Origin: a virus
Taxonomy: Duplodnaviria > Heunggongvirae > Uroviricota > Caudoviricetes
Virus record (IMG/VR): IMGVR_UViG_3300035696_000002
Direction: 5' to 3' (one strand)
DNA length: 64,000 nucleotides
Below, in pieces: positions 2,894 to 63,230 of this stretch. Position numbers and translations under genes: made by a program. How positions within the stretch are numbered: the stretch's first letter is position 1; each line of letters opens with the position of its first letter. The notes under the pieces are model-generated. The model did no database searches. It was not told the origin of the DNA and worked only from the letters and a program-made list of their open reading frames with translations.

Positions 2894-3280
2894 GTGATTC
2901 CCAACCTCTCACTTACGCAGGCCCTTGAAATCTACGAAGAACTGCTCGAAGCTTATCAGGGCACGAATGGGTTCGGCGGCAACGTCGCGGAAATCTACGC
3001 ATACCGTCTTTCCCCGGAAGACCCCTCGGCTGAAGTTGCTTATCGGAAAATGAATGAGATCAAGCCGGGTGATTTACTCCATACGGCCTTGATCGAACGC
3101 GGCATGATCGCTGCTTACAACCTGAAAATCCTGATTGAGTTTTTCATCAAACGTCATGAGGACGCGAAGGTCACAATCGAAATGTACGACGACAAAAAGA
3201 AAACATGGATTTTCGCTCCGTATAAAAAAGTCCTCAAGACGCCATTCATCCATCGCTGCCATGTTAGAATAGAGCAGTGA
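2894..3280 (+). CDS. hypothetical protein
   Basis: GTGA overlap start. Confidence 0.6.
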   Translation: MIPNLSLTQALEIYEELLEAYQGTNGFGGNVAEIYAYRLSPEDPSAEVAYRKMNEIKPGDLLHTALIERGMIAAYNLKILIEFFIKRHEDAKVTIEMYDDKKKTWIFAPYKKVLKTPFIHRCHVRIEQ

Positions 3281-3501
3281 TCCTGATCTGGGCTGCAAAC
3301 GCCACATTACTAGCTTCTGTCTGGCTCCTCGGTAGGAAGTCCTTCAAACTAGGTTGGGCTGCAAACCTCCTCGGTGATCTGATGTACACCTACGCCTCGC
3401 TGTATCTGATGCAGCCGAGGCACTGGGACATCGCTTCGTTCAATATCACGATTGCCTGTTTTGCAGCATGGAACCTATGGAAAACGTATACGACAAGCTA
3501 G
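3277..3501 (+). CDS. small membrane protein, PnuC-like
   Basis: Three hydrophobic segments; W..G.K....GW pattern. Confidence 0.5.
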   Translation: MILIWAANATLLASVWLLGRKSFKLGWAANLLGDLMYTYASLYLMQPRHWDIASFNITIACFAAWNLWKTYTTS

Positions 3502-43702: not shown

Positions 43703-44884
43703 ATGGGGGTATTCGGCGTGAAACAGGCTGCTACTAAGACCATGCTTGACCCAAGCCGTCGCAGTAATGACGCACAGAGTTTCGAGGCACAGTTGCGACG
43801 CAGGATCGTAGGTCAAGACGAAGCGGTCACAAAGGTCACCGAAATCTACCAAATGTTTCTCGCCGGATTGAACGCTCCCGGACGCCCTGTTGGCAACCTT
43901 CTCTTCCTCGGCCCCACTGGAACGGGCAAGACTCGCGTAGTGGAAGCCATGGCCGAAGCACTCTTCGGCGACGCCCGTGCCTGTATCAAGATTGACTGTG
44001 CTGAATTCCAGCACTCCCACGAAATTGCAAAGCTGATCGGTTCGCCTCCGGGCTATCTCGGACACCGCGAGACTCATCCACTGCTCACGCAGGAAGCATT
44101 GAACCAATGGTTCACTGAGAAACTGAAACTCTCGATCCTGCTCTTCGATGAAATTGAAAAAGCCAGCGACTCGCTCTGGCAATTGCTGCTTGGTATTCTC
44201 GACAAGGCAACACTCACCCTCGGCGACAATCGCCGCGTCGATCTTAGTCAGTGCATTATCATCATGACCAGCAATCTCGGCGGCAGGGAAATGAACGAGG
44301 ACAGCGGCTTGGGTTTTGCTCCGAAAGACACCATCGTCGATCCTTCTTGGGACGCGAAGGTTGATCGTCATTGCGTCGAAGCCGCACGCCGGAAATTCCA
44401 GCCGGAGTTCATGAACCGCATTGACAAGACAGTCGTGTTCAAGACTCTCCGCGACGAACATCTGGCACAGATTCTTGAGATCGAACTCGGCATGGTGCAG
44501 CAACGCATCATCATGGCTGCCGGAACAAACCAGTTCGTGTTCACTTGCACCGATGCGACCAAGGAAGCCCTGCTCAGAGAAGGCACCGACAAAAAGTACG
44601 GAGCCCGTCACTTGAAGCGTGCGATTGAGAAGCGGCTGGTGCATCCGATGTCCAGCCTCGTTGCGACCGGGCAGGTAAAACTCGGCGATTTCATCCGCGT
44701 TGATTACGATCCCCCGGCTGAGGGTGCCACGGAAGGTGAGTACTCTTTCCACAAGGAATCCGAGAACAACTTTGTGGCTCCTACACTCGAACGCTACTAC
44801 GGTTCCCCGGCACGCACCGACCTGAACGGGCCGCGTAAGGTCGCCCCCATCGCCCCGCCAAAGAGTGGAACGGGCATCATCTAA
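43703..44884 (+). CDS. ClpA/ClpB-family AAA+ ATPase, D2 module only
   Basis: IVGQDEAV, GPTGTGKT, KLIGSPPGYLG, LFDEIEKA, PEFMNRID, YGARHLKRAIE. Confidence 0.92.
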   Translation: MGVFGVKQAATKTMLDPSRRSNDAQSFEAQLRRRIVGQDEAVTKVTEIYQMFLAGLNAPGRPVGNLLFLGPTGTGKTRVVEAMAEALFGDARACIKIDCAEFQHSHEIAKLIGSPPGYLGHRETHPLLTQEALNQWFTEKLKLSILLFDEIEKASDSLWQLLLGILDKATLTLGDNRRVDLSQCIIIMTSNLGGREMNEDSGLGFAPKDTIVDPSWDAKVDRHCVEAARRKFQPEFMNRIDKTVVFKTLRDEHLAQILEIELGMVQQRIIMAAGTNQFVFTCTDATKEALLREGTDKKYGARHLKRAIEKRLVHPMSSLVATGQVKLGDFIRVDYDPPAEGATEGEYSFHKESENNFVAPTLERYYGSPARTDLNGPRKVAPIAPPKSGTGII

Positions 44885-47419: not shown

Positions 47420-50400
47420 CTACTGATATCTCTCTTCTGCCTCTACCAAAGAATACGTTTCGTACCCGTGGGCGGGAGAGTGCCACTCAACATCTACTCG
47501 TGCGGTATCCACAGCGAGGAGACGGACAAAAGCACCAAGCCTACGTTGAGCATCGGCCTGAGAGAAGAATTCAAAGATAGCAACTTTACCGCCAGTTGTC
47601 ACCTTCAACCCCGCCGATTCTGCGTTATAGCGAACGTAACCAGCCCGCATCGCGAACAACTCCGCACCTTCGTAGCCGCCCAGACCTTTGGACTGCCCAC
47701 CGCCGCGAAACTTTCCTTTGCTCTTGAAACCGAGAGCACGGGCTATTTCAGCGTGCGTCCCATTCACTGGAATATTTTTCCCGTCTGGTGTGATCCAGCC
47801 CCGACCGTGGAGCGGGTAAGACAACGCTGTTGGGGTTATCGGCTGGGTCGCCGTTCCCGCCGCAGCCGCCGTAATACCGGGGTTCTTCGGATCGAACGCA
47901 CCCGTATTGCCCGTCGCAGACTTGATCTGGGTCGGTTCGAACACAACGTAGTTGAGTGAGGCATCCAATCCGCCGCGTCCGTACATTTTTTCGGCACGGG
48001 CCGCGTAGTCTTCATCGCTCTGACCAACAAATTGAAGCTCGCCGCCCTCGACGGTGATGTAGCCATCGTAGCCAGCAGACTTAATGTCGTTCACGAGGTT
48101 GATGCCAAGCTGTTCATCGGTGGACACAGACTCCATGCCCTCTACGAACGCCCATTTGCCTTCGCGGAACAGTTTGTAGATGTGCTTTGGATCATACCCC
48201 TGTAGTTTCGCCGTATGCTTGCGGAGCCATTCACGCACCCAGCGACGCGAGGCTGGATCACGGAAATCAAGCGGGTTTTCCATCTTCAGGTAAACCGCTT
48301 TGACGTTGCCGCCTTCGCGATCCTTCCCGCCCGGATCGTAACTGTAGGTGAACTGCTCCGTGTACATCGGATTCGAGGCGAAAAAGAATCCGGGCCGGAG
48401 TGTAAGCTCCGTAGTCTTCGGACGATCAGCTTCAACCTTGTCCTTGGCCTGTTGGAGGGTGCCGAACTCGCCGCCGTCCGGGAAGAGCTTGAACTTTCCT
48501 TCCTGTTCGACGATTACGGCCTGCGTGCGGCCCTCACCCTGACCCACGGCACCCTTGCCGCCATCAAAGTCGCTCCACTTCCAGTACAGCGGACGTTCCA
48601 AGCTGAATGCATCGAAGTCTCGCGGCGATCCATGGTAAACCACCTGCGGATTGCCGTTCGCATCCACAACTTTGGAATTACCGAACCACGCTTTGAACTG
48701 CGGAGTGTCCGTCACCCTTTGTGGAGCCCGAGCCGGACTGGCTGCCGTGTGCACATCCTCTTCAGTCGAGGAGATCAGCTTCACGACCTTTGCTTTGCGT
48801 GCCCGATACTCGAACAACGTGTGCTCGCCGCCCTTGGCCTTACCGCTCCAGTAACCCTGAGCAAGGCGGGCAGCCTCCGGGTCATCTATGCTGTCCCAGA
48901 TGTACGTTGACAACTCGGAGTACCAATCCATGTCGTTCTTCTCGACCTTGCCGATAGGTTCGACGGCGTAGACGTAGTCTTCGTAGCCGCCCGCATAGTC
49001 GATCAGAGCCGGATCATCCACCATATAGACGCTATCCTTGCGAGGCAGGGCACCTTTCGGGCGATGCAGTTCTACGATGTCTTCAGTCAACTCGACATCG
49101 GGTTCTGGGGCGGTCACATACCCGCCCGGCTGGGGCGTAAGGGTGTCGCCCGGCTGGAATTTCTTCCGGCTGCCGTGGTACAGAACCGTCTTCGCTGTCT
49201 TTACCGATCCGTAGTGTGGGTCGTACTCTTTATCAACCTCATCCCTCGTCAGAACCGCACCAAAGTAAGCATCCCGCTTCACGGTAGTCTCGATGAGCGT
49301 CCCCTTCGGGGTGACGAGCCATGAGTGTGGACGCCAGAGTCCATCCGGGGACAGAGCGAATCCGTTCGCAACTTCTCCAATGCCCTTCTCCATGAGGCAG
49401 CGACTATTTCCGTGGCACTGGTTGTTCCGCATCTTCTGGAGCTTCGATCTTCCCTTCCAGTACCGACCGCGAGTGAGCAACCGCTGCACTTCGTCAGGTG
49501 GGTTGATCTGACCTCCGATCAAAACTTCGAAGCCGCCATAACCGAGTATCTTGTCCCGCAACTTGACCAAGTCGGGACGAGTCCGCAACTCAGGCTCGTT
49601 CATCTCCTCAAGCCGCTGCTGCCATTCCTTATCCACTGCAAGATCGGCAGCAGACTTGGGATTGGGGTCTACCGACGCATACTTGCTGTTCACATTGAAG
49701 ATTTTGTCGGTGAACTGGTAGCTCTTCAGCTTCGGGTATTTCGCCTTGATGCTCGTGACGATGGAGTTCGGTGCGTGCACGCCGTAGGACTGCATTTCAA
49801 CGGTGTTTTCATCTGGGTCGATGACAGCATACCCACGAAGAAGCTTGCTATCGTTCGGAATTCCCAACTCTTCTGCCCAACTGTCGTGGCTCCACGCGAT
49901 TTCCTGATCTTCGATGTAATCTTTGCCGCCACGGGACATCCAAATCAGGTAATTGCTCGCCGGAACGCGGGCAGCCGTTTTCTCCTGATCTTTTCCAAGG
50001 GCCTTGCGGATAATGTTCCCGGAGTTCTGGAACAGTTTCAGGAGGCCGGGGTGGTACTTGCTGGAATTCGTCCCGATGTCCTCCATGACAGTCTCGTAAG
50101 GCACCCAGTTCAAAGACGCGGTCTCGTCCTTGTGCTCCAGATCGTGTGTGCCGCCCGGCTGCGGGTTAAGGCCGAACTCCTGCGACACCACGCCGATGAA
50201 GTTGTGATAGTTGAACCCACCGAAGCCGGAATAGGTGAAGGCCGGGATCAAATTGATGCCGCCAGTGTACCCGGTCTCCTCGGCAAGTTCCTTCTTGGCA
50301 CTCTCAGCCGGGCCAAGGCCTTCTTGCAGGGCACCGCCGATTGTGCTGTACACGTTCGGGTGATCGACGTAGTTGGAACGCATGGCAAGGCAGATGGTGC

Positions 50401-53400
50401 CCTTTGCGGGGCACACAGGGAGGATACCGGACGCCTGCCCGGACTTACCGCCCCAGAATCCCTGCTTAGCCAGCCGCCCAGCCGGGAAACGCTCCTCAGC
50501 GTCAGCCAAGGAGTACTCGATAAAGTTGCCACGGCCCTCTTCGACGCCAACACGGGCGATATCTACCGGGAAGCGGCGGAGGATTTCGCCTGCACGGCGA
50601 TAAGCGTCTGCCTTGTCGGCAAACTGCATGAAACCGATGCTCTTGTTCGGGTCGATGACGACGCGGACGTATCCCTTGTCGATGGCCTGCTTGGTGAGAT
50701 CGTGTCCACGGAAGCCAAACTGCATTGCCATGGTTTCGTGGTCAGTATCGGAGCAATCCACCCAGTTTCCGGTTGGAGTCACCCAGCCATCGTCGCGAAT
50801 CTCCATGGGCATAGGGACGCCACGCATTTTCGGGCGGGCGAGGCGAACGCCGGGCTTCCCGCAATTCAGAGCGATTGCGGCAACCTTTGATCCCTGTGGA
50901 TCACGCACCATAAGCGTGCCCCGGACGGTTTTGAATCCACGACGGCTGTACCACGACGTAAGCTGCTCATCGTCGAGGCCCTGACCATCACCAAACGCAT
51001 CCGGCGTCAAACTCATCTTCACGCCATGCTTGTCAGCCAACGAGCACAGCCAATCCAATGCCCGTGAAGCGTTGCCTTTGCCCCGGAACAGGGAGGTGAT
51101 GTCGCTGATGTGAATCTTGCCGTCGAACGGACGGACTTCGATCACGACTTGTTCATTCCATACACGGTCGCGGTGCCCAAGTGGGTTAGGCCCAGTGCCG
51201 GAACGGAAATCATTCATGAATTCTTCGAGGGCCGGGTTCTTTGACTTCAGAGAAATCTCTGCGGAGGTTTTCCACGACCGGGATTCAAGCGGACGTTGAG
51301 CAACGACTTCTTTCTCCGGGTATAGCTGCTGGAACTCGTCAATAACCTCGTAAGGAACGCCGCCGTAATCGGAACTCTCCCGCAAGAAAATCTGAGTGGA
51401 GGCCTTACGGGCATCACCACGGGGAATGCGGTCAAATGAGTGCCCGGAGGTGGGCAGGCCCATGGCTTTGAACCATTCCAAGTGTCCCTTCTCCGATGGC
51501 ACGCCACGGAGCACTTCAACCTGACCATTTACGATGGCCCACAGGTCGAATGTCTGCCGTCCATGAAGGGCTGTCTTCACGCCATACTCTTTGAATGACG
51601 CCGGAGTCCAGAAGACCTTGTAGTGGTCTCCGTACAAGCCTGTGGCATCGCACTTTGTCTTGCCGGGCTCTTCCACACGTAAAGCCACGGCCTCAGCGAC
51701 CGGGTATCTGTCGAAGGTGAAAACTACCTGCTCCCCGTGGAGGCAAAGCGGGCGATCCTTGAACGCCCAGAACTCTTCCTTGCCGCCAGAGTCCTCAAAG
51801 AAGTGATCGCGGGCGAAGGAGGGGACTTCAATCGTGAAGGCCTTCTTGCCCGCCACAAATTCTCCGGTGTCTTTCTTGACCTGCCGGGCCTTGTCATCCC
51901 ACATCTCAATCAGGCCGGGGTCTTTGATGTTCGTCGCTTCGAGCGGCGTGCCAATATGCTTCTCCGTCCATTCACGAAGCAGCTTGTGGAGTGCCTGCTT
52001 GTTTTCGAGATCGGCCAGCCGGGCCGTGAAGACTTTTACAAGTTTGCCTTCCTTCAAGGCCTGCTTGACTTTCTCAACCATCGCCGGAATGGGCTTTCCG
52101 ATCACCAGAGGCGTGAACGGCACAACATCTTCAGCGAGCGTGCCGTCGAGATCGACACCGATCCATGGACGCCATCTTCCAGCTACCAGATCATCCTCTT
52201 CAGCAGAGAATTTCAGGGGGACATCATGCCCGTTGTACCGGAGCTTCGGTGCCACAATCGGCTCCCCGACCTGTTTGATCTGGCTCGACTTGAACACGAT
52301 GTAATCGTCGCCCGCTTTTAATGCGTGCGGTTCGATTACGTTTTTGATGATGACCCCGTCATACCCATTTTTGTGTGCGAATTCCGCAATGAGGTCTGAA
52401 CTGACGCCCCGCTTCTTCCACCAGTCACCACCGAGGAAGCCTTGCTGCATCTCTGGAGGTGCAGGAATGTTGTCGTAGAAGTTCCCTTCTGCGTCCACGA
52501 TGTACGGCTTGTTAATCGTCAGATATGCTTGGTGAACCTGCGGGCCATAAGCTCTGGCAACCTCTGGTGACGAGGTGAAGAACTCCCCGACCGTGTACTG
52601 ATCGTTCTTGATCTTGCGATTCAGCTTTTGCCCGACCGGGATTCCCCGATAAACGGGGCCATACTGCTGGGCGACCTTAGCGGCTGCGGCTTTCCCACTC
52701 ACAACACGGAAATACGTCGGCGGCAGAGGACGAGTCAAACAGACGTTCCCCGGCAGATCATTGATGTGGGCCAATTCTGTAAGGACATCGTCGGCGACGC
52801 CGTCCTCGGGGTCAACGATCAGGTTGTCGAGCGGGACATCGCGGACTTCTACGACCGTCTCGCATCCCTTTTCGCCTGCATACCAGAGAGCGTTCTGGAT
52901 TTCGTTCGTCAGGTAGAGATATTTTGTCTGCCCGGCATTACCACCCATGCCTGCCTTGTTGGGCTGCCAGCCGTGCTCGATCAGTTCCTTGGCGTTCTCT
53001 GGGCAAGTGCCGTGATAGAGCGGCGGAGCCAGTTCTGCGGCAGTTTTCGATGCACCCTCAGAGAACCACGGCATGTCAATCGTGTCGCCTGCTGTGACGG
53101 TACGGAGATTCTTCGGCGGCTTCTTCCATTCCTTTTCACCCTTGTACTTGTAGCCCGTGATCTGAATCTCTGCTCCCGGAACAACGTTAATTTCCTTCTC
53201 ATCAGCGGCCACAAGGTTCACGTATGCCGTCCGATTCCAGTCAACTTTGTTGGGCGAGTCGAGGATGCCCCGAAGCATGATGATGTGTGGGTGCCCAGCG
53301 GCAAGTTCTTCGTGCACGTAAGCATTGTTCTCGTCGTCAGACCAGAAAATGCCCGTGCCCTTCTCCTTGTACCGCCCCTTGTTAATCTCGTTGAGGCTGA

Positions 53401-56400
53401 CGGTGCCCAGTCCACGGTAAATCGTCAGCGGAAACTGGAGTGAATGGAGGCGATTCTCCGTAATCTCCCACGAAGCCCGGAGCCATTCCCAACCCACCTT
53501 GTCCAGCCACGCTTCACGTTGAGCCTCGGACAAAGTGTTCCAATCGTTGCCCTCGGCCTTCACTCGCTGGCGTGCCTCAGCCTCAATCTTATCCCAATCA
53601 CCCTGTGCCTCTTCGAGGCCAACATTGGCCCATGCCAGAGCGTCTTCCAGATCGGGCATACCCGATGCACTCTTGCTGGTCTTGAGTTCTTCGTACAATT
53701 CGTCGGTGTTTGTGTCATCGACTACTTGTTTGTTAGGCCTCTTTACGGGAACATACGCCTGAATGGTCTCGTCCCCACGCAGCTTCGCCGCCGCTGCACG
53801 GTGGTTTCCATCCAGTACAGTGCCACTGAATATAGAGCCGTTCGGATAGGAATTCATCACAATCGCCGGGAAGGGGGTGTCCATGTCCGCATATTGTTGA
53901 GCAACGGCGGGGCTGTAGTCATCGCCCGGTGTCAGAAGATCGACAGGTACATCTTTCAATTCCCACCGTGTGCTGGCACCCGTCTTAGGGTCTACGCCCA
54001 TCAGTTGATATGCCTCACGGAGGTCGGTCATGAATGGGCGTGAGTCACCGTAACGAGTGCTGTTGTCCAATATGTGCTGTGCGACGACTTCTCCGCTTAC
54101 TGCTTGCCCAGCGGTGACACTCGCCATGCGGAAATCGCCGGGTTGCTTTGCCTTATCCCCAGTCGCCAGTTCATAGAACTTGATGAGGTCTTCATCCGAG
54201 GTGATGTACTGCGACAGCGTGTTGTGAATACGGTGGTCTAACGCCTTGGCCTGCCCGATTGGCATGACCCGGAGAACTTTCGCCTTCTTGGGGTCTTCCA
54301 CCCAGAACTCGTTCCCGAATCCACGCTTTACCTGCCAGTATTTGTCACGGGGCACGTCGCTCATGTCGATCTGAGCCGCATACGCACGAGACTTGCCGTA
54401 ATAGTCCGCCCAGTTGTCGAGGTGGGACGTAATCATGAGTTTCCCGGCGTCCGCTGTGGCATCGCCCATGCTGGACATGTCACGCGGCCCCTTCTTCGGG
54501 TCAATCGTGAAGTTTGGGTCGGTCGTTACGTGCCAATACGTGCCATGCTTGATCTCGTGGAAGAAATCCTGATAGAACTGCTCAAACGAACCCGCTTTGC
54601 GTGCCTCGGCAGCGAGGCCGGACAGCGACGGCGGAATTTTCTTCAGTTCTTTGTAACCCCCGGTCTTCGAGGACAACTTTTCGGGCTCATCTTCGACATC
54701 GTAGCCTGATGGATCACGATCTGATGTGATCGAAGGTGGAGTCTTGCCGCCGTTGACGCCCTTCCACATGTAGTTGTCAGTTTCGTCGCCCTGTTCGGTA
54801 TCGTAGACGTAGCTGAAACCCATGGAATCCCAGAATCCTCTGGAACTACCCGCCCCGGTATCGCCTGCGTACAGCCGCACGAGTTTTATGTTCTTGGGGA
54901 GCCCGGCTTCCCATTGCATGTAGAACTTTCTGCCCAGACCCTTGCCGCGATCCTTCGCCGGGATCACAAACATGTCGATCCAGATCGTGCTTCCGTCCCC
55001 ATGGGTCTCAATGCTGGGCTTATCCTTTGCCCCGGTTTTGTCGAGCCACTGGAGAGCCTGTGACGGCGTCGGTTCTTCTTTACCCGCGATGTCTTCCAGT
55101 CTATCGAGGGCCATCTGAGCCATTTCCTGATCGAATGGGTTGGACGGCAGCGGCTTGTCGAATTCTGGCTGAGCGGAATCGCTGTGCTGCGGAATCATGT
55201 ACGACTGATCGGGGCCTGCGGTCTTCGTGGAGCCTGATTTTCCAGTCCCGGACAGTTGGCTGAGCGTATTGCTGCCGCCTTCGATGAACCAGCTTGCCAA
55301 ATCACTCCGCTGATGCACAATGTTGAGCACGCGGTCGATCAGTTGCAGCTTTTGCTCCGCCGTGGGGGCCTCGGAAAGCTGAATCGCGAGATTGGTGAGC
55401 TTGTTCATGGCGAAATCGCTGATCCGCCAGTTGCCCTTCTCGTCATCAAAGAAATGTTCGAGCTTTTCGAAGTAGCCGTCAGGGTATTGGTCACCTGTGA
55501 TGCCTTCGGCATACTGGATCGGGTCTTGTTGCTCATGTCCACAGAGAATCGTGTTGACTTCCAGCTTGTTGATGTTGTTTGCAATGATCCAAGCGATGTC
55601 GTCGATGCCCTTTTCGTCACGGACGAAGCCTGTCTTCGCGTAATCGTTCCAAATTTTCTTCAGACGGGCAGCGGGAACGAGCGTCCACTTCTGACGGTAA
55701 TTTTTCTGCTTCAAATGAGCAGTGTACTCTTCGATAATTTGCTGGGCGGCGGCATCCTGTCCTTCGATGTGTGAATACACGTCCGCTTCCTTCTCGAAGA
55801 GTCCCGGTGCGAGCGTTTCCAGAGCAGGCATGCCCTCGACACCCTTGACTCGTTCGTTGACAACCGAGTAGGCGTTGGTTTCTTCTCCCTGTGCGGGGTC
55901 TTGGTACTGGGTGTCGCTGAGCGGAGGCGTCTTATGCGAGGCCGTCTTGCCCGGCGTGAACTCTCCGGCGATTTCCTGCCATTTGTCGTGACCCTCAGCG
56001 AGTAATTTCTTCAAATCTTCAAGCAGATTTTCGCATTTCGAGAACTTCCACTGCCCCAAAGCGACGGCGGCGTCGCGTGCGATCCGCTGGGCGTTGTTGT
56101 AGACAGTCAACTGAGCGTGGGCGTCGGCGTATGCCTGACATTTTACCTTCAAACGGGCAACCGCGTCCTCAAAACTGAGGGAGATCGTGCCTTCTTCCTT
56201 GTGCACGTTGTAATTGTTTCGCTGATTGCCTTCCATTTCGCGGACGAAACCATACGGGTTCTGGAGAACACGCAAAACCTTCTCTACTTTGTCCTTGACG
56301 TTGCCCCACTGGCCCCGGAAACCGCTGAAATTTTCTGACATGCGGTGCGTCAGGTCTCCGGTGTGCTCAACAACGAAACTAAGGACGCCGGACGCAAGCT

Positions 56401-57445
56401 GATCGTGCTGAATTTTCAGCATCGCCTCTTCGGGAGCACCACGTTGGGCACTCGCAAGCTGCTCAAACGCCGCATCACGCTGGTAATCGTGCTCAGTCAT
56501 CTCGATTCCGCGACGATCATAGGCCCCGGTCTTGGGGGTCTTCCACTGAATGACGGCGGGATTGAGAATGAGAATACTCTGCCCGTTGGCCGACATGGGT
56601 TCGTCGATAAAAGCCCCGTCATAGCCGAGTTCTCGCATTCGCTTGGCGATCTCCGGGTAGTTCCAGAGGTAAGAGTAGTGGATTCCCTTCTTGCTCACGA
56701 GATCATCCACGGTCAAGCCCTTCTGATCGAGTAGCACAACCTTCAACACGTCCCACAGTGCGTTACGATCCTTCGGCGAGAGCATTTTCTTTGGGGTCAA
56801 TGTCGCCGTGAAAACGTTCGGGCCGTAGTCACGAGCGTCACCGGGGTCTTCTGCGAAATAGATTTCGTTGTGCGATGGTGGTGTGTCGGAATCCGTGCCA
56901 TGGTATGCCCGTATCCGCTCCAGCCCGGCAGAGGTCTTTTTAACTTCGACCGGATGGAACTCCCCCAAAGGGACTTGCACCTGCGACTTGTCTTTTCTGG
57001 AAAGTGTCACGGCATACACCGTGAAGGCCAGCCCGGCCAAAGCGTCGCTGCCTTCGTACTTGGCAGCGGCCTCGGTCGTCACGTAGGCGACTGTGACGTG
57101 CGGGGTGTATTCGAAATCGTCCGGGCGAACGCCGATGGCTTTGTCGATGGCGTTCTTCAGGTTCTCGATCTCGGGAGTCTTTTCAACGAGGGCGACAATC
57201 GGTGTGGTGGAGTGCCCTTCAAAGCCGTGGAGCTTCCCCAGCGTCACCTCGAACGGTTCAATGTCGCGGAGGGCCTGAGTGAGGGCAATCACATCCTCTT
57301 CGACGCCATACTTCAGGGTGATGTGGGGCTCAGTTTCCCGCCCGTCTCCGGCGAGTTCTGCTTCGGGGATTTCCTGCCCGACCTTCAGCACCGTCTCGGC
57401 GGCTTTGGGCGGCAGATTGATCTGTGTGAGTGCGTTCTTCGGCAT
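47420..57445 (-). CDS. giant polyvalent protein (2H phosphoesterase, multiple ART-like, 2 GNAT, ParB-like, HAD, NUDIX, Cys/His hydrolase-like modules)
   Basis: HITL/HVTV; YHG/YRG..GYDG; RGKG; DGNHR; DLDGT; GG.....E.A.KEL.EETG; 3341-aa uninterrupted ORF. Confidence 0.9.
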   Translation of the reverse strand: MPKNALTQINLPPKAAETVLKVGQEIPEAELAGDGRETEPHITLKYGVEEDVIALTQALRDIEPFEVTLGKLHGFEGHSTTPIVALVEKTPEIENLKNAIDKAIGVRPDDFEYTPHVTVAYVTTEAAAKYEGSDALAGLAFTVYAVTLSRKDKSQVQVPLGEFHPVEVKKTSAGLERIRAYHGTDSDTPPSHNEIYFAEDPGDARDYGPNVFTATLTPKKMLSPKDRNALWDVLKVVLLDQKGLTVDDLVSKKGIHYSYLWNYPEIAKRMRELGYDGAFIDEPMSANGQSILILNPAVIQWKTPKTGAYDRRGIEMTEHDYQRDAAFEQLASAQRGAPEEAMLKIQHDQLASGVLSFVVEHTGDLTHRMSENFSGFRGQWGNVKDKVEKVLRVLQNPYGFVREMEGNQRNNYNVHKEEGTISLSFEDAVARLKVKCQAYADAHAQLTVYNNAQRIARDAAVALGQWKFSKCENLLEDLKKLLAEGHDKWQEIAGEFTPGKTASHKTPPLSDTQYQDPAQGEETNAYSVVNERVKGVEGMPALETLAPGLFEKEADVYSHIEGQDAAAQQIIEEYTAHLKQKNYRQKWTLVPAARLKKIWNDYAKTGFVRDEKGIDDIAWIIANNINKLEVNTILCGHEQQDPIQYAEGITGDQYPDGYFEKLEHFFDDEKGNWRISDFAMNKLTNLAIQLSEAPTAEQKLQLIDRVLNIVHQRSDLASWFIEGGSNTLSQLSGTGKSGSTKTAGPDQSYMIPQHSDSAQPEFDKPLPSNPFDQEMAQMALDRLEDIAGKEEPTPSQALQWLDKTGAKDKPSIETHGDGSTIWIDMFVIPAKDRGKGLGRKFYMQWEAGLPKNIKLVRLYAGDTGAGSSRGFWDSMGFSYVYDTEQGDETDNYMWKGVNGGKTPPSITSDRDPSGYDVEDEPEKLSSKTGGYKELKKIPPSLSGLAAEARKAGSFEQFYQDFFHEIKHGTYWHVTTDPNFTIDPKKGPRDMSSMGDATADAGKLMITSHLDNWADYYGKSRAYAAQIDMSDVPRDKYWQVKRGFGNEFWVEDPKKAKVLRVMPIGQAKALDHRIHNTLSQYITSDEDLIKFYELATGDKAKQPGDFRMASVTAGQAVSGEVVAQHILDNSTRYGDSRPFMTDLREAYQLMGVDPKTGASTRWELKDVPVDLLTPGDDYSPAVAQQYADMDTPFPAIVMNSYPNGSIFSGTVLDGNHRAAAAKLRGDETIQAYVPVKRPNKQVVDDTNTDELYEELKTSKSASGMPDLEDALAWANVGLEEAQGDWDKIEAEARQRVKAEGNDWNTLSEAQREAWLDKVGWEWLRASWEITENRLHSLQFPLTIYRGLGTVSLNEINKGRYKEKGTGIFWSDDENNAYVHEELAAGHPHIIMLRGILDSPNKVDWNRTAYVNLVAADEKEINVVPGAEIQITGYKYKGEKEWKKPPKNLRTVTAGDTIDMPWFSEGASKTAAELAPPLYHGTCPENAKELIEHGWQPNKAGMGGNAGQTKYLYLTNEIQNALWYAGEKGCETVVEVRDVPLDNLIVDPEDGVADDVLTELAHINDLPGNVCLTRPLPPTYFRVVSGKAAAAKVAQQYGPVYRGIPVGQKLNRKIKNDQYTVGEFFTSSPEVARAYGPQVHQAYLTINKPYIVDAEGNFYDNIPAPPEMQQGFLGGDWWKKRGVSSDLIAEFAHKNGYDGVIIKNVIEPHALKAGDDYIVFKSSQIKQVGEPIVAPKLRYNGHDVPLKFSAEEDDLVAGRWRPWIGVDLDGTLAEDVVPFTPLVIGKPIPAMVEKVKQALKEGKLVKVFTARLADLENKQALHKLLREWTEKHIGTPLEATNIKDPGLIEMWDDKARQVKKDTGEFVAGKKAFTIEVPSFARDHFFEDSGGKEEFWAFKDRPLCLHGEQVVFTFDRYPVAEAVALRVEEPGKTKCDATGLYGDHYKVFWTPASFKEYGVKTALHGRQTFDLWAIVNGQVEVLRGVPSEKGHLEWFKAMGLPTSGHSFDRIPRGDARKASTQIFLRESSDYGGVPYEVIDEFQQLYPEKEVVAQRPLESRSWKTSAEISLKSKNPALEEFMNDFRSGTGPNPLGHRDRVWNEQVVIEVRPFDGKIHISDITSLFRGKGNASRALDWLCSLADKHGVKMSLTPDAFGDGQGLDDEQLTSWYSRRGFKTVRGTLMVRDPQGSKVAAIALNCGKPGVRLARPKMRGVPMPMEIRDDGWVTPTGNWVDCSDTDHETMAMQFGFRGHDLTKQAIDKGYVRVVIDPNKSIGFMQFADKADAYRRAGEILRRFPVDIARVGVEEGRGNFIEYSLADAEERFPAGRLAKQGFWGGKSGQASGILPVCPAKGTICLAMRSNYVDHPNVYSTIGGALQEGLGPAESAKKELAEETGYTGGINLIPAFTYSGFGGFNYHNFIGVVSQEFGLNPQPGGTHDLEHKDETASLNWVPYETVMEDIGTNSSKYHPGLLKLFQNSGNIIRKALGKDQEKTAARVPASNYLIWMSRGGKDYIEDQEIAWSHDSWAEELGIPNDSKLLRGYAVIDPDENTVEMQSYGVHAPNSIVTSIKAKYPKLKSYQFTDKIFNVNSKYASVDPNPKSAADLAVDKEWQQRLEEMNEPELRTRPDLVKLRDKILGYGGFEVLIGGQINPPDEVQRLLTRGRYWKGRSKLQKMRNNQCHGNSRCLMEKGIGEVANGFALSPDGLWRPHSWLVTPKGTLIETTVKRDAYFGAVLTRDEVDKEYDPHYGSVKTAKTVLYHGSRKKFQPGDTLTPQPGGYVTAPEPDVELTEDIVELHRPKGALPRKDSVYMVDDPALIDYAGGYEDYVYAVEPIGKVEKNDMDWYSELSTYIWDSIDDPEAARLAQGYWSGKAKGGEHTLFEYRARKAKVVKLISSTEEDVHTAASPARAPQRVTDTPQFKAWFGNSKVVDANGNPQVVYHGSPRDFDAFSLERPLYWKWSDFDGGKGAVGQGEGRTQAVIVEQEGKFKLFPDGGEFGTLQQAKDKVEADRPKTTELTLRPGFFFASNPMYTEQFTYSYDPGGKDREGGNVKAVYLKMENPLDFRDPASRRWVREWLRKHTAKLQGYDPKHIYKLFREGKWAFVEGMESVSTDEQLGINLVNDIKSAGYDGYITVEGGELQFVGQSDEDYAARAEKMYGRGGLDASLNYVVFEPTQIKSATGNTGAFDPKNPGITAAAAGTATQPITPTALSYPLHGRGWITPDGKNIPVNGTHAEIARALGFKSKGKFRGGGQSKGLGGYEGAELFAMRAGYVRYNAESAGLKVTTGGKVAIFEFFSQADAQRRLGAFVRLLAVDTARVDVEWHSPAHGYETYSLVEAEERYQ

Positions 57446-57480: not shown

Positions 57481-57885
57481 TTAGAACAGTGTGTGTCCCT
57501 TGTAGAGGGCGTGCTTCTTGAAGATACCACGGTCGGAAATGTACTGACGCCACTCCTCAAACGCCGGGCCGTGGTCGTCTTTCATGTTCGTGGCGAGATG
57601 GATCATCTCGTGAGCTAAAGTACTCAAAACCTTGATCCAATCCGCCTTTTCATCCAAAACAATCTCGAAATCGTGGCGGCAGCGGGGGCAATTCTTCTGG
57701 TGGGTAGCCCAAGTGGGTGTGGCTGGGCTGTCAGCCCAACCGAAATAGCTATCTTCGATCTCCCGCTTCTCTTCACCGGGTCGGGCGTATCGAACGCATA
57801 CCCGTTTTGACTCAGGGCAGTTGCCCGTAAAGAATCGGCGATTGATCTCCCGGTACCATTTGAGCAGTGTCCGATCAGACCTCAC
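57481..57885 (-). CDS. SprT-like zinc metalloprotease
   Basis: Y..IN.RFF, TLAHEMIH, HG..F. Confidence 0.8.
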   Translation of the reverse strand: MRSDRTLLKWYREINRRFFTGNCPESKRVCVRYARPGEEKREIEDSYFGWADSPATPTWATHQKNCPRCRHDFEIVLDEKADWIKVLSTLAHEMIHLATNMKDDHGPAFEEWRQYISDRGIFKKHALYKGHTLF

Positions 57886-57912: not shown

Positions 57913-59418
57913 CTATTTGGTGGTTTGAGTTTTTAGTTGTTGTGCCAAGGCTATGGTGCGTTTTTGCTCATCGGGGGTCATTTGAGCATACCCACGCTCA
58001 CCGCCGCCGACCTGACGTACAGCTTCCAGCCAATACGGATCATCTTGCGATGCTGGCCGCTGTTGGACTTGATTCATACTGCCCTCGGGCTCCTGTTCCT
58101 TTGTCTTCCAGAAGTCCTTCAGGCGGTCATCGACTGCATCAGCCCGATGTACCTTTAATACCGCAGTGCGGGCCTTGAGGTAAGTGAACCACGCACCAGA
58201 TTTGCTCCCAGCCGCCGCTTGCTTGGCGACCTCCGCTACTTCGTCCACGGTAAGTGACGAAGCTGCCTTGCCTTGGGATTGCAGGGCCAGTCTTTCCGCC
58301 AGTTTGGTCAGGGCCGAGGTAATGTCGAACCTCAAGTCCCCCTTCTGGCGTCCTTCTACCGATTCCTGAAGCTGTTCCAGAGTAGCCTCTCCCGCCTGTA
58401 CGATGTCATTGAGCTTTTTCAACATCTGCATCTCGGGCTCAGTGAGCTTACCCTTCTCCGGCTTGTAAATCAGGTCGTGCGTCACCTCGGCCCATGCGTG
58501 CATGAGCACCGAAGCGATTTGAATCTCCACGTTCGTGTCGGCGTACCGCAATTCGTCCTTGTGAAGCGTCTCAGGACGCAGTTGCACGAGGTAGTGCGTT
58601 GCCACATAGCCCATGGAATTGTCCGCGTCGCGATCTTCGGGGAAGTGTTTCGCCGGGCGGACTGATACGAACAATTGTTCGATGATTTTTCCTACGGCCT
58701 CACGATCAGCCGGGAGATACAGGGCGACACGGACGCCAGCGAGGTCAACGATGTCGGCGTAAATGTCGCTGAACGATTGATAATTTCGCGTCTTGTTCCG
58801 CTTCACCAATTTGTCGTACAGCTTGTGGGGCCGCTTCGCTCGATGAGTGACGATGGCTCGAATACCCGCCTCTTGCAGGGCTTCGTCGAGGGTGTCCCGC
58901 ATCTGGTGAGCAACCTGATCGTAGAAATCGACCTCGTGCTTGTAGAGTTTCACGAATGCGTCGATGATCGGGTTGCCGCTGGCGGCGGTCTTCGCTTCCT
59001 GTGCTTTTTGGACGGTATCGAACAGATATTCGAACGGAACTTCGTAGATTTCACCGAGGTTGGTGTCTTCCCAGCCCTCGTCGTAGTGAGCCAGATACGA
59101 GGCCTCGGCGTCTTCCAGCGAGTCGTACCCCAGCATCACCTTGTACTCGTCGAACTCGCCCTTGTCATCGTTTTGCTCAACAACATAGACAAATTCGGCA
59201 TCCTTGTCCGGGCCAATGTACACGTCCACTTTTTCTTCATCGCCCGCAGCCGTAGTATCGGGGATGTATCCGTAGTCGGCGTACATTTTCCGCTTCCACT
59301 TCTCCCCCTCAGGGTTCACCCCCACCCGCTCGCTGCCTTTTGGCCACTCGATTACGATGGGAATCCCCCTAAATTCAGTACTATGCATGTTAGGGAGTTT
59401 GTCTGCCGTTTTGTTCAT
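57913..59418 (-). CDS. inorganic pyrophosphatase-like domain fused to a RelA/SpoT small alarmone synthetase domain
   Basis: IEWPKGS.R..YGYI..D.E.VDV..DEYKVMLG; RAK..L..K, DLAGVRV, GY.A.H, EIQI..HAWAE..H. Confidence 0.88.
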   Translation of the reverse strand: MNKTADKLPNMHSTEFRGIPIVIEWPKGSERVGVNPEGEKWKRKMYADYGYIPDTTAAGDEEKVDVYIGPDKDAEFVYVVEQNDDKGEFDEYKVMLGYDSLEDAEASYLAHYDEGWEDTNLGEIYEVPFEYLFDTVQKAQEAKTAASGNPIIDAFVKLYKHEVDFYDQVAHQMRDTLDEALQEAGIRAIVTHRAKRPHKLYDKLVKRNKTRNYQSFSDIYADIVDLAGVRVALYLPADREAVGKIIEQLFVSVRPAKHFPEDRDADNSMGYVATHYLVQLRPETLHKDELRYADTNVEIQIASVLMHAWAEVTHDLIYKPEKGKLTEPEMQMLKKLNDIVQAGEATLEQLQESVEGRQKGDLRFDITSALTKLAERLALQSQGKAASSLTVDEVAEVAKQAAAGSKSGAWFTYLKARTAVLKVHRADAVDDRLKDFWKTKEQEPEGSMNQVQQRPASQDDPYWLEAVRQVGGGERGYAQMTPDEQKRTIALAQQLKTQTTK

Positions 59419-59650
59419 GACAAGAAATACCTGTTTTACTGGGGATTTAAGAATAACCCGAAGGTTCCCTCACTCAAGGAACGGGAAACCTTCAAATTTT
59501 TAAGAGCAAATTTCGCTTCCAGCAAAATCGCAGTATTGTACAGAGGAACCAGCAGGAATCACGGCCACGAGAGCGGAGCAAGGGATTGCACTGCTGTTGA
59601 TGCAGGCCACTTCGTTAACTAACTATACACCTCATAGGAGAGGGCACCCA

Positions 59651-62274: not shown

Positions 62275-62387
62275 GGCGGCTTATCGGACGTTGCTTTTGT
62301 TCTCAGCAACTTGGCTCGGTAACAGTATTATCCTAGATACGGCACTTTCGTGTGGGTAACCGCGTCGAAATTGTACTGAGGAGTAAT

Positions 62388-63230
62388 ATGGAACTTGCAG
62401 ACTTTCAGAAGAAATTTCATCTCGATCACCCCGAATTCATTGACGCATCTGCACCGCTAGTTACGGCGGCTATGGATATTTTCGACACCCCGCTTCGATC
62501 CCCATTGCAGGAACGCGACCTCGTGGCTCGGCATTTGGCTCAGTCGGTAGTTAGCTCCTTTCAAAGCATTCAAATTCTCACATACGAAGGTCACGGAGCG
62601 GATGCCATGTGCATAGTCAGAAGTATGCTCGAACGCACCGTCGCTCTCGTAGCTTTTGAGCAGTTTCCCACAATGGCTGAAGACTACTGTGATTTTCGCT
62701 GGATCAAAAAATGGAAATCTTATCAGCGTGCTCGCGGAACGCATTTAGACGTGCTTCCCGATGAACAAGTGCGTGAACTCGAAAGTAAGTACAACACAGT
62801 GGTGGGTAAATTCACGTTACCAAGAGGAGGTATTCGAGGATCGTGGTATGCGTGTGATCTTCGCACCCTTTGTGACCAAATCGACAAAAGTATCAACCGA
62901 GTGCTGTGGGTTCCGATTTACGATGCCGCTTACAGGGTCGGCTCCGATTTTGAGCACGGTGACATCGCTGGTTTAGAACGTCAAGTTGACATCGAGAAAG
63001 ACCCGTACAACCTTGATCTCCCCCCATCTGATAATTTCATTACCCCCGCAATCTCTACGGCTCACTGGTTGACACTGGCGGCTTTGGTTGCTTACGTTAG
63101 CATCACTGGTATTGACAAGGGGGCAGTGACCGCACAAATCCACGACACCTACAAAAAGGTGTGGGACGTGGGATCACGAGAACACACGGTAGCCAAGAAG
63201 GGCTTCGACGACACTGTAGCATCCCTATGA
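62388..63230 (+). CDS. DUF5677-like helical protein
   Basis: A....RSMLE..., Y...S.FEHG motifs; appears lower in GC than neighbours. Confidence 0.55.
   Translation: MELADFQKKFHLDHPEFIDASAPLVTAAMDIFDTPLRSPLQERDLVARHLAQSVVSSFQSIQILTYEGHGADAMCIVRSMLERTVALVAFEQFPTMAEDYCDFRWIKKWKSYQRARGTHLDVLPDEQVRELESKYNTVVGKFTLPRGGIRGSWYACDLRTLCDQIDKSINRVLWVPIYDAAYRVGSDFEHGDIAGLERQVDIEKDPYNLDLPPSDNFITPAISTAHWLTLAALVAYVSITGIDKGAVTAQIHDTYKKVWDVGSREHTVAKKGFDDTVASL

Follow-up and report, generated by a model that had tools for sequence, protein, structure and literature searches.

The 64,000-nucleotide stretch analyzed here (the window) belongs to the viral record IMGVR_UViG_3300035696_000002 of IMG/VR and contains a giant gene, P0001, which is the subject of this work. 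P0001 is an intact open reading frame (ORF) on the minus strand (47420-57445) that runs from ATG to stop and encodes 3341 amino acids (aa). It is the third gene of an operon, where it follows an InPase-RelA/SpoT fusion gene and the gene of an SprT-like zincin, and it is followed by a weak terminator (Table 1). The source genome, that of a soil phage, is a single contig of 463,033 bp with a terminal overlap. Since this contig encodes a major capsid protein, a head-maturation protease, and a tail sheath, it comes from a huge phage. No nucleotide-level matches were found in phage and plasmid collections. The closest cultured relative is Tunturiibacter phage Tunturi 5, with a capsid protein identity of 69.5%, and Bacillus phage G is a distant relative, with a capsid protein identity of 34%.

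The P0001 protein consists of about 21 modules of 90 to 290 residues each. In a search across 5.8 billion proteins, 65 further giant proteins were found to share these modules in scrambled order, and BLAST against the giant homologues showed that at least 12 modules shuffle separately. Pfam searches assigned residues 36-153 to a 2H phosphoesterase and also identified three ART-PolyVal stretches and a NUDIX domain. Scanning the modules singly left most of them without a match; the only additions were ART-PolyVal within 1588-1749 and, below threshold, Arr-ms within 2752-2901. There are six Y-[HR]-G ART-like signatures. The two GW..TP..GYVR modules, M15 and M21, are true paralogues (28% identity, E 2e-12), and the HAD-like module M11 has stand-alone homologues in many phages. 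The module list in the initial annotation, which was made from the DNA letters, is right in outline, and part of it is supported by these searches, namely 2H, three ART-PolyVal, and NUDIX by Pfam, HAD by PHROG, and the GW..TP duplication, but the Arr-like call stayed below threshold (E 0.006). Its estimate of about seven ART-like, two GNAT, and one ParB-like domain has partial family backing; the second GNAT, the ParB-like, and the Cys/His modules had no family match. For the remaining GNAT call (2062-2189), acetyltransferase Pfam families are listed for whole homologous giants and are not mapped to that module. Hallmark domains of polyvalent proteins are present in both P0001 (ART-PolyVal, PF18760, E 3.6e-34) and the first gene of the operon (InPase, PF18823, E 5.7e-37). 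The gene product is best explained as a polyvalent effector polyprotein of small enzyme and binding modules, and its domains, its shuffling modules, and its place in a phage genome bear out the earlier description of a polyvalent protein of a huge phage.

Table 1. Features at the P0001 locus. Positions are those of the window. For each module, the last column ends with the junction site and its residue number; other P numbers denote homologous proteins. pLDDT, predicted local distance difference test.
Feature	Residues	Position	Strand	Evidence and junction site
InPase + RelA/SpoT fusion, 501 aa, first operon gene		57913..59418	-	Pfam PF18823 and PF04607
SprT-like zincin, 134 aa, HEMIH, second operon gene		57481..57885	-	Pfam PF10263 E 2e-6
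M1 2H phosphoesterase	1-172	56930..57445	-	Pfam 2_5_RNA_ligase2 E 8.6e-15; ends KTSA 170 (56927-56938)
M2 ART-like (YHGT)	173-307	56525..56929	-	Similar to M10, E 3e-5; no Pfam match alone; ends KTGA 305
M3 unnamed	308-502	55940..56524	-	49-53% identical modules elsewhere in P0003, P0006, P0010; ends KTAS 500
M4, two sub-modules (about 503-556, 557-743)	503-743	55217..55939	-	Separate match sets; ends KTAG 741
M5 GNAT-like by motif only	744-929	54659..55216	-	No Pfam or homologue match; ends KTGG 927
M6 unnamed conserved	930-1110	54116..54658	-	60-74% identity to modules in P0007, P0008, P0012, P0013
M7 ParB-like by motif in the initial annotation	1111-1260	53666..54115	-	No Pfam match; ends KSAS 1258
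M8 ART-like (YRG)	1261-1469	53039..53665	-	Weakly similar to M20; matches P0005/6/7/10; ends KTAA 1467
M9 ART-like (LYHGT)	1470-1587	52685..53038	-	56% identity to P0006 2598-2711 (ends KVA); ends KAAA 1585
M10 ART-PolyVal	1588-1749	52199..52684	-	Pfam PF18760 E 4.1e-12; ends KFSA 1745
M11 HAD-like (DLDGT)	1750-1869	51839..52198	-	phrog_1238 E 6.8e-6; ends KKAF 1867
M12 unnamed compact domain	1870-1959	51569..51838	-	pLDDT about 90; 48-57% identical homologues; ends KTAL 1957
M13 unnamed	1960-2061	51263..51568	-	Ends KTSA 2059, in low-pLDDT stretch; matches start exactly at K2059
M14 GNAT acetyltransferase (probable)	2062-2189	50879..51262	-	62-77% identity to P0003/P0004 modules; pLDDT 88-95; ends KVAA 2187
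M15 first GW..TP..GYVR copy	2190-2328	50462..50878	-	Paralogue of M21; ends KQG 2327
M16 NUDIX hydrolase	2329-2491	49973..50461	-	Pfam PF00293 E 7.6e-9; ends KTAA 2489
M17 unnamed	2492-2591	49673..49972	-	No family match; ends KYAS 2588
M18 Cys/His module (QCHGN...HSW)	2592-2751	49193..49672	-	46% identity to P0004; ends KTAK 2749
M19 ART-like (LYHGS)	2752-2901	48743..49192	-	Arr-ms E 0.006, below Pfam cut-off; ends degenerate HTAA 2899
M20 ART-PolyVal	2902-3193	47867..48742	-	Pfam PF18760 E 3.6e-34; ends degenerate ITAA 3191, kept as ITAA in P0004
M21 second GW..TP..GYVR copy	3194-3341	47423..47866	-	62% identity to P0003 3883-4066
Weak terminator-like hairpin just after P0001 stop codon		47374..47391	-	
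Metzincin-like metallopeptidase, 196 aa, downstream of P0001		46454..47044	-	Weak Reprolysin/Matrixin matches

The initial annotation had described the modules as joined at 19 sites by a recurring K-x-[AGS] linker, and all 19 sites were found where it placed them, within one or two codons. K-T-[AGS] occurs 14 times in P0001 compared to 2.9 ± 1.7 times in shuffled sequences, and K-T-[AGS]-[AGS] occurs 10 times compared to 0.67. None of 2000 shuffles attained either observed count. In the ORF set of the whole 463-kb genome, there are 44 occurrences of K-T-[AGS]-[AGS], of which 10 are in P0001. The loose form K-x-[AGS] shows no enrichment across the protein as a whole (63 vs 54, p 0.08); it is special only in its placement at junctions.

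Module boundaries were defined without the motif, as the ends of BLAST matches to the 65 giant homologues. Because the modules are scrambled among these proteins, the match ends mark boundaries independently of the motif. Of the 19 sites, 16 are no more than 10 residues from a homology breakpoint of this kind, with a median distance of 1, while random positions gave an expectation of 5.3 and a maximum of 14 in 5000 draws. Matches to homologues begin exactly on the Lys at residues 305, 500, 1585, and 2059, and those of M3 begin or finish on the motif. At the other three sites, KSAS 1258, KYAS 2588, and KTAK 2749, homologues are uninformative, and for this reason no breakpoint is near.

A recombination signal at the DNA level was considered as the origin of the motif. 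This was ruled out by the codons for Lys, Thr, and Ala, which differ synonymously from site to site, so selection acts at the level of the peptide. In an AlphaFold model of residues 1740-2335, all five sites are at the edge of a confident domain or within a low-confidence (low-pLDDT) linker. The confident fold of M12, for example, begins right after KKA and stops at KTA. The HAD module was poorly predicted in this model because its alignment is shallow.

The motif was then sought in relatives. In 15 close relatives, K-T-[AGS] lies no more than 10 residues from 25.4% of all breakpoints, compared to 5.6 ± 1.5% with random motif placement. In an unbiased scan that left out P0001, the relatives' junction windows were compared with interiors for 400 X.Y patterns, and K.A ranked first (108 vs 187, 4.1-fold, p 3e-27). 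The junction logo reads Lys, Thr (5x) or any residue, Ala (above Ser and Gly), and Ala or Ser (3x), and the flanks show no preference. The junctions of 51 distant polyvalent proteins, analyzed in the same way as a control, gave a K.A ratio of 0.91. This difference can be seen at the end of the 2H module, which reads ...VPFGNP-KNA-S, ...LPLG-KQA-A, or ...VPFN-KSA-Y in the clade and ...IPLKGQAPSTSS or ...IPLNGPSKKP, without K-x-A, in distant proteins. Relatives of M4 have KTA, KTG, or KQG between and after its two sub-modules, and Tunturi 5, whose polyvalent protein is gp273, reads SKSAA at the junction where P0001 has the degenerate HTAA 2899. Three complete relatives with the same head protease also encode polyvalent proteins that bear the motif, two of them with clear counts over expectation (9 vs 0.6 and 3 vs 0.4). 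The comparison of boundaries with interiors proposed in the initial annotation is thus positive in P0001 and, independently, in its relatives. Lys-x-small does mark the junctions far beyond chance, but it is better written as K-x-A-[A/S], with Thr favored at x. This junction tag is clade-specific and conserved at the protein level.

Capsid and scaffold proteins had also been named as places to look for the motif, and this search was positive, with the tag concentrated in the head gene block, in a scaffold-like protein, and at both ends of the head protease, in its disordered tails. K-x-A-[AS] occurs at 3.6 times expectation in the head block and at 3.2 times in the polyvalent operon, compared to 1.28 times elsewhere in the genome. 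The most enriched of the genome's 310 proteins are three giant head-block proteins, the scaffold-like protein, the protease, P0001, and its upstream neighbor. The scaffold-like protein, whose gene lies between the protease and capsid genes, has 9 tags compared to 2.9 expected. Clade-wide, the ratio of observed to expected tags is 7.7 for the head protease, 6.2 for the capsid protein, 2.8 for the scaffold-like protein, 2.7 for the giant protein encoded upstream of the protease, and 0.4 for a decoration-like protein. The InPase-RelA/SpoT protein contains KTA at residue 3, KTAAS between its domains, and KAASS after them, and K-x-A is retained between and after the domains in relatives.

For the head protease, 80 relatives were collected from IMG/VR, and the 44 with clear anchors were used to count tags in tails and core. 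The N tail contains 1.41 tags compared to 0.16 expected and the C tail 1.05 compared to 0.11, which is about ten-fold in each, while the catalytic core is not enriched (0.09 vs 0.10). Both tails are disordered in the model. The protease, encoded at genome positions 196750-197715, matches phrog_18299 (E 5.6e-16). In a wide VIA search, its core model aligned with T4 gp21 over 129 residues (Z 9.0, root-mean-square deviation 3.1), and the model was also similar to the proteases of varicella-zoster virus (VZV; Z 8.2), human cytomegalovirus (Z 6.7), and Kaposi's sarcoma-associated herpesvirus (Z 5.5); the next unrelated fold had a Z of 5.5. Foldseek with the same model gave no significant match, and gp21 ranked first at E 0.07. 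The modeled fold is that of T4 gp21 and herpesvirus assemblin. T4 gp21 has L/I-x-E as its cut site, and the maturational (M) and release (R) sites of herpesvirus assemblin read V/L-x-A-S, cut between Ala and Ser. K-x-A-[A/S], if cut after its Ala, has the same architecture as the sites of this family, with a fixed P3 and P1 and a free middle. Enzymes of the gp21/assemblin type cut after a P3-x-P1 triplet with a free middle, such as A-x-E in SPN3US and S-x-E in phiKZ, and these prohead proteases trim their own ends, as in the example of SPN3US gp245 (PMC5694885).

A tag that is conserved at the protein level, clade-specific, exposed, and common to head proteins and the protease tails is best explained as a protease cut site. 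We give about an even chance to the tag being the cut site of the head protease of gp21/assemblin fold. On this explanation, P0001 would enter the prohead, probably in company with the InPase-RelA/SpoT protein encoded upstream. The head-maturation protease would then cut the K-x-A sites, with Lys as P3 and Ala as P1. The resulting small enzymes would be retained in the capsid and would enter the host with the DNA, where they could serve host takeover and counter-defense. The packaging and injection steps are modeled by analogy on T4 Alt and the internal proteins and on phiKZ-type ejection proteins. The wider proposal, that a clade of soil huge phages uses K-x-A-[A/S] as a cut-site code to build, package, and dice polyproteins into about twenty injected enzymes, is plausible, although we would place it somewhat below an even chance. 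With such a code, the gain and loss of modules between tags would turn ordinary small phage genes into virion cargo.

Another explanation is that K-x-A-[A/S] is never cut and is a linker or docking element, a Lys modification site, or a domain end-cap, which would leave a single 367-kDa multi-enzyme chain. Some packaged giants do remain whole, for example the N4 virion RNA polymerase (PMC5512222), and common ancestry of the linkers could inflate the counts. However, the tag persists at junctions whichever modules are joined, while the flanking linker residues vary, and it is located in stretches that are disordered in the model. In the disordered tails that flank the protease core, the tag forms conserved islands amid variable sequence, which is the usual layout of self-processing prohead proteases, and the fixed P3 and P1 with a free middle suit a protease of this fold. 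The capsid protein, whose K-[TS]-A is in an invariant, structural-looking segment, fits an uncut element better. Taken together, we consider an uncut tag possible but rather unlikely.

The capsid segment in question is N-terminal and almost invariant, and it carries K[TS]A...KLAAS, while phage G reads E-T-E there. The capsid N-terminus was considered as a clean propeptide test, but it was uninformative since the whole segment is nearly invariant in the clade and differs at this site in phage G. The major capsid gene lies outside the window (genome 192725-193741, minus strand; L003:8977-9993). Its longest ORF begins 19 codons before the start (MANLSR...) that all relatives use. Met20 is probably the true start, which gives a capsid protein of 319 aa, small for a 463-kb phage.

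Several observations weigh against cleavage at the tag by the head protease. Cleavage, the protease responsible, packaging, and injection are all steps that we infer. Within P0001, K-T-G also occurs inside modules at residues 604, 803, and 1154 (about 55631-55636, 55034-55039, and 53981-53986), and the single match of M7, to P0011, spans KTG 1154. Should the tag be a cut site, sites with Gly in third place may be cut poorly or not at all. The Lys is lost at two sites, HTAA and ITAA. In the capsid protein, K-[TS]-A lies within the nearly invariant segment and is replaced by E-T-E in phage G, so it may be structural and not a cut site. The third complete relative, G001, is only weakly enriched, and the counts over homologues are not independent of each other. 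BLAST against the giant homologues showed no terminal module common to the relatives, which leaves no evident candidate for a capsid-targeting sequence. At the scale of the genome, short K-x-A leaders at protein N-termini show no enrichment (34 vs 20-30). The operon is located among non-structural genes, about 25 kb from the nearest head-block gene and about 55 kb from the capsid gene. Directly before its first start codon is GGTATT-N7-ATG (59419-59460), which is mostly an element of non-structural genes. GTATT is found 6-9 nt before the start of 15 genes in the genome, mostly small and non-structural, and GGTATT-N7-ATG may be a promoter for leaderless or near-leaderless transcripts. A k-mer search upstream of structural genes gave no clear late-promoter motif.

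It could also be a host protease that recognizes K-x-A after injection and frees the modules inside the cell, although we know of no host protease of this specificity. Release after delivery is among the options discussed for polyvalent proteins (PMC5512222), and the characterized or inferred hosts of the clade are all soil bacteria. That head-assembly proteins and the phage's own protease carry the tag speaks for a phage enzyme instead, which makes a host protease very improbable.

The genes beside P0001 bring in other phage enzymes. The first and third genes of the operon are retained in relatives, but the middle slot changes. It holds an SprT-like gene in L010 and L104, as it does here, and a Prok-JAB/MPN gene in L009 and Tunturi 5 (swap coordinates L009:9424-9969 and L005:7047-7532), so that one slot is held by two unrelated metallopeptidase folds. 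For L103 and L105, no peptidase gene of the middle slot turned up in the stretches that were retrieved. The counts of K-T-[AGS]-[AGS] are 10 vs 0.7 with SprT in the slot, 10 vs 0.8 with JAB, and 9 vs 0.6 and 3 vs 0.4 with neither. The 196-aa metzincin-like gene adjoins the polyvalent gene in L009 (where the two are convergent), L010, and L104, with 47-72% identity, and it is absent from G002, G003, and Tunturi 5, which are complete genomes that keep the tag.

From this arrangement, it might be proposed that the SprT-like zincin or the metzincin-like peptidase cuts K-x-A in the cytoplasm, either ahead of packaging or once injection has taken place. The giant gene has a zincin gene on each side, the operon slot is filled by a small peptidase-like gene in four relatives, and three relatives keep the 196-aa zincin next to the polyvalent gene. 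Iyer et al. proposed that polyvalent proteins are processed by zincin-like enzymes, with P1 DdrB as an example (PMC5512222). Since the slot is swapped or missing and the metzincin-like gene is absent while the tag and its enrichment persist, the idea of zincin processing is weakened for these sites, and the peptidases may have other roles. It also leaves the tag in the head-block proteins and in the head protease tails unexplained. Cutting by a neighboring zincin is therefore improbable, in our judgment, though less so than cutting by a host enzyme. A protease within the chain was considered as well. Pfam scans of the whole of P0001 and of each module gave no match to a peptidase family. No support was found for the Cys/His module M18 as an internal protease. 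Its matches are limited to unnamed phage proteins, and P0004 alone among the relatives has a homologue. The Atlas clusters nearest to M18 consist of free-standing proteins of 133-201 aa from phages and bacteria, all unnamed.

Cleavage of the tag by the head protease can be compared with known systems. In phage T4, the ADP-ribosyltransferase Alt and the internal proteins IPI-III are packed into the head, trimmed by gp21 at P3-x-P1 sites, and injected with the DNA. They are separate gene products, each with a capsid-targeting leader of 10-20 residues and one cut. P0001 would resemble them as a source of packed effectors trimmed by a protease of the same fold, but its cargo units are on one chain, with about 19 proposed K-x-A cuts and no evident leader. 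The herpesvirus assemblin sites are alike in the fold of the protease (Z 8.2 to the VZV enzyme), in the P1 Ala followed by Ser or Ala, and in the free middle. They differ at P3, which is Lys here and Val or Leu there, and in the substrates, which here would be strings of effectors and not only scaffold and protease. Polyproteins of eukaryotic RNA viruses share, if the tag is a cut site, the single chain, release by a viral protease at short sites, and fixed stoichiometry. Unlike these, P0001 has no identified protease module in the chain, and the proposed cutting within the capsid would yield delivered effectors and not replication proteins.

In the giant phages phiKZ, 201phi2-1, and SPN3US, many head-internal proteins are cut at a three-residue motif, often at several sites, by a self-processing S80 protease (PMC5694885). 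There, the motif is S/A/G-x-E, the cuts remove long propeptides and do not separate strings of enzymes, and the capsid and protease belong to other families than in this clade, where the capsid protein is related to its phage G counterpart. The polyvalent proteins described by Iyer, Burroughs, Anand, de Souza, and Aravind in 2017 have 2-15 domains and are found in phages and conjugative elements (PMC5512222). For these, the authors propose processing by a zincin-like or, rarely, a fused assemblin-like peptidase, without any site, and the word "linker" is absent from their text (PMC5512222). P0001 is like them in combining many unrelated enzymatic domains on one chain, in its ART-PolyVal domains with InPase, NUDIX, GNAT, and 2H partners, in being phage-encoded with an associated zincin gene, and in its predicted delivery with the DNA and proteolytic processing. 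It is unlike them in its approximately 21 modules and in a defined, clade-specific K-x-A-[A/S] tag common to head proteins. The polyvalent class and the processing of cargo by prohead proteases are known, and the defined tag, the proposed specificity, and the layout of twenty units are new.

If the tag is a cut site, the cargo of a clade of uncultured huge phages would be predictable from sequence, including the packed proteins, the cuts, and the mature enzymes. It would also give the gp21/assemblin protease family a new specificity, with Lys at P3 and Ala at P1. A DNA phage would then use an effector polyprotein strategy, in which one gene provides equimolar loading of units small enough to pass the tail. 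The exchange of cassettes between tags suggests a simple route for the turnover of effectors. Since the relative Tunturi 5 is in culture, the idea is testable.

Two further genes are near the operon. One encodes a ClpB/Cdc48-type AAA+ protein (43703-44884, plus strand; AAA_2 E 3e-36 plus a ClpB D2-small domain), and a gene of this type is also close to the polyvalent gene in L009. The other is a DUF5677 gene (62352-63230, plus strand). In some relatives, the polyvalent protein is split over two adjacent genes (L010:2984-18616; L104:1954-16096; L011:1-16753). In L010, the two genes encode 2337 and 2871 aa. Between them are TAA, three bases, and ATG, and an AGGTGG lies immediately upstream. The break coincides with the beginning of an ART-like module (MRWFHGT).

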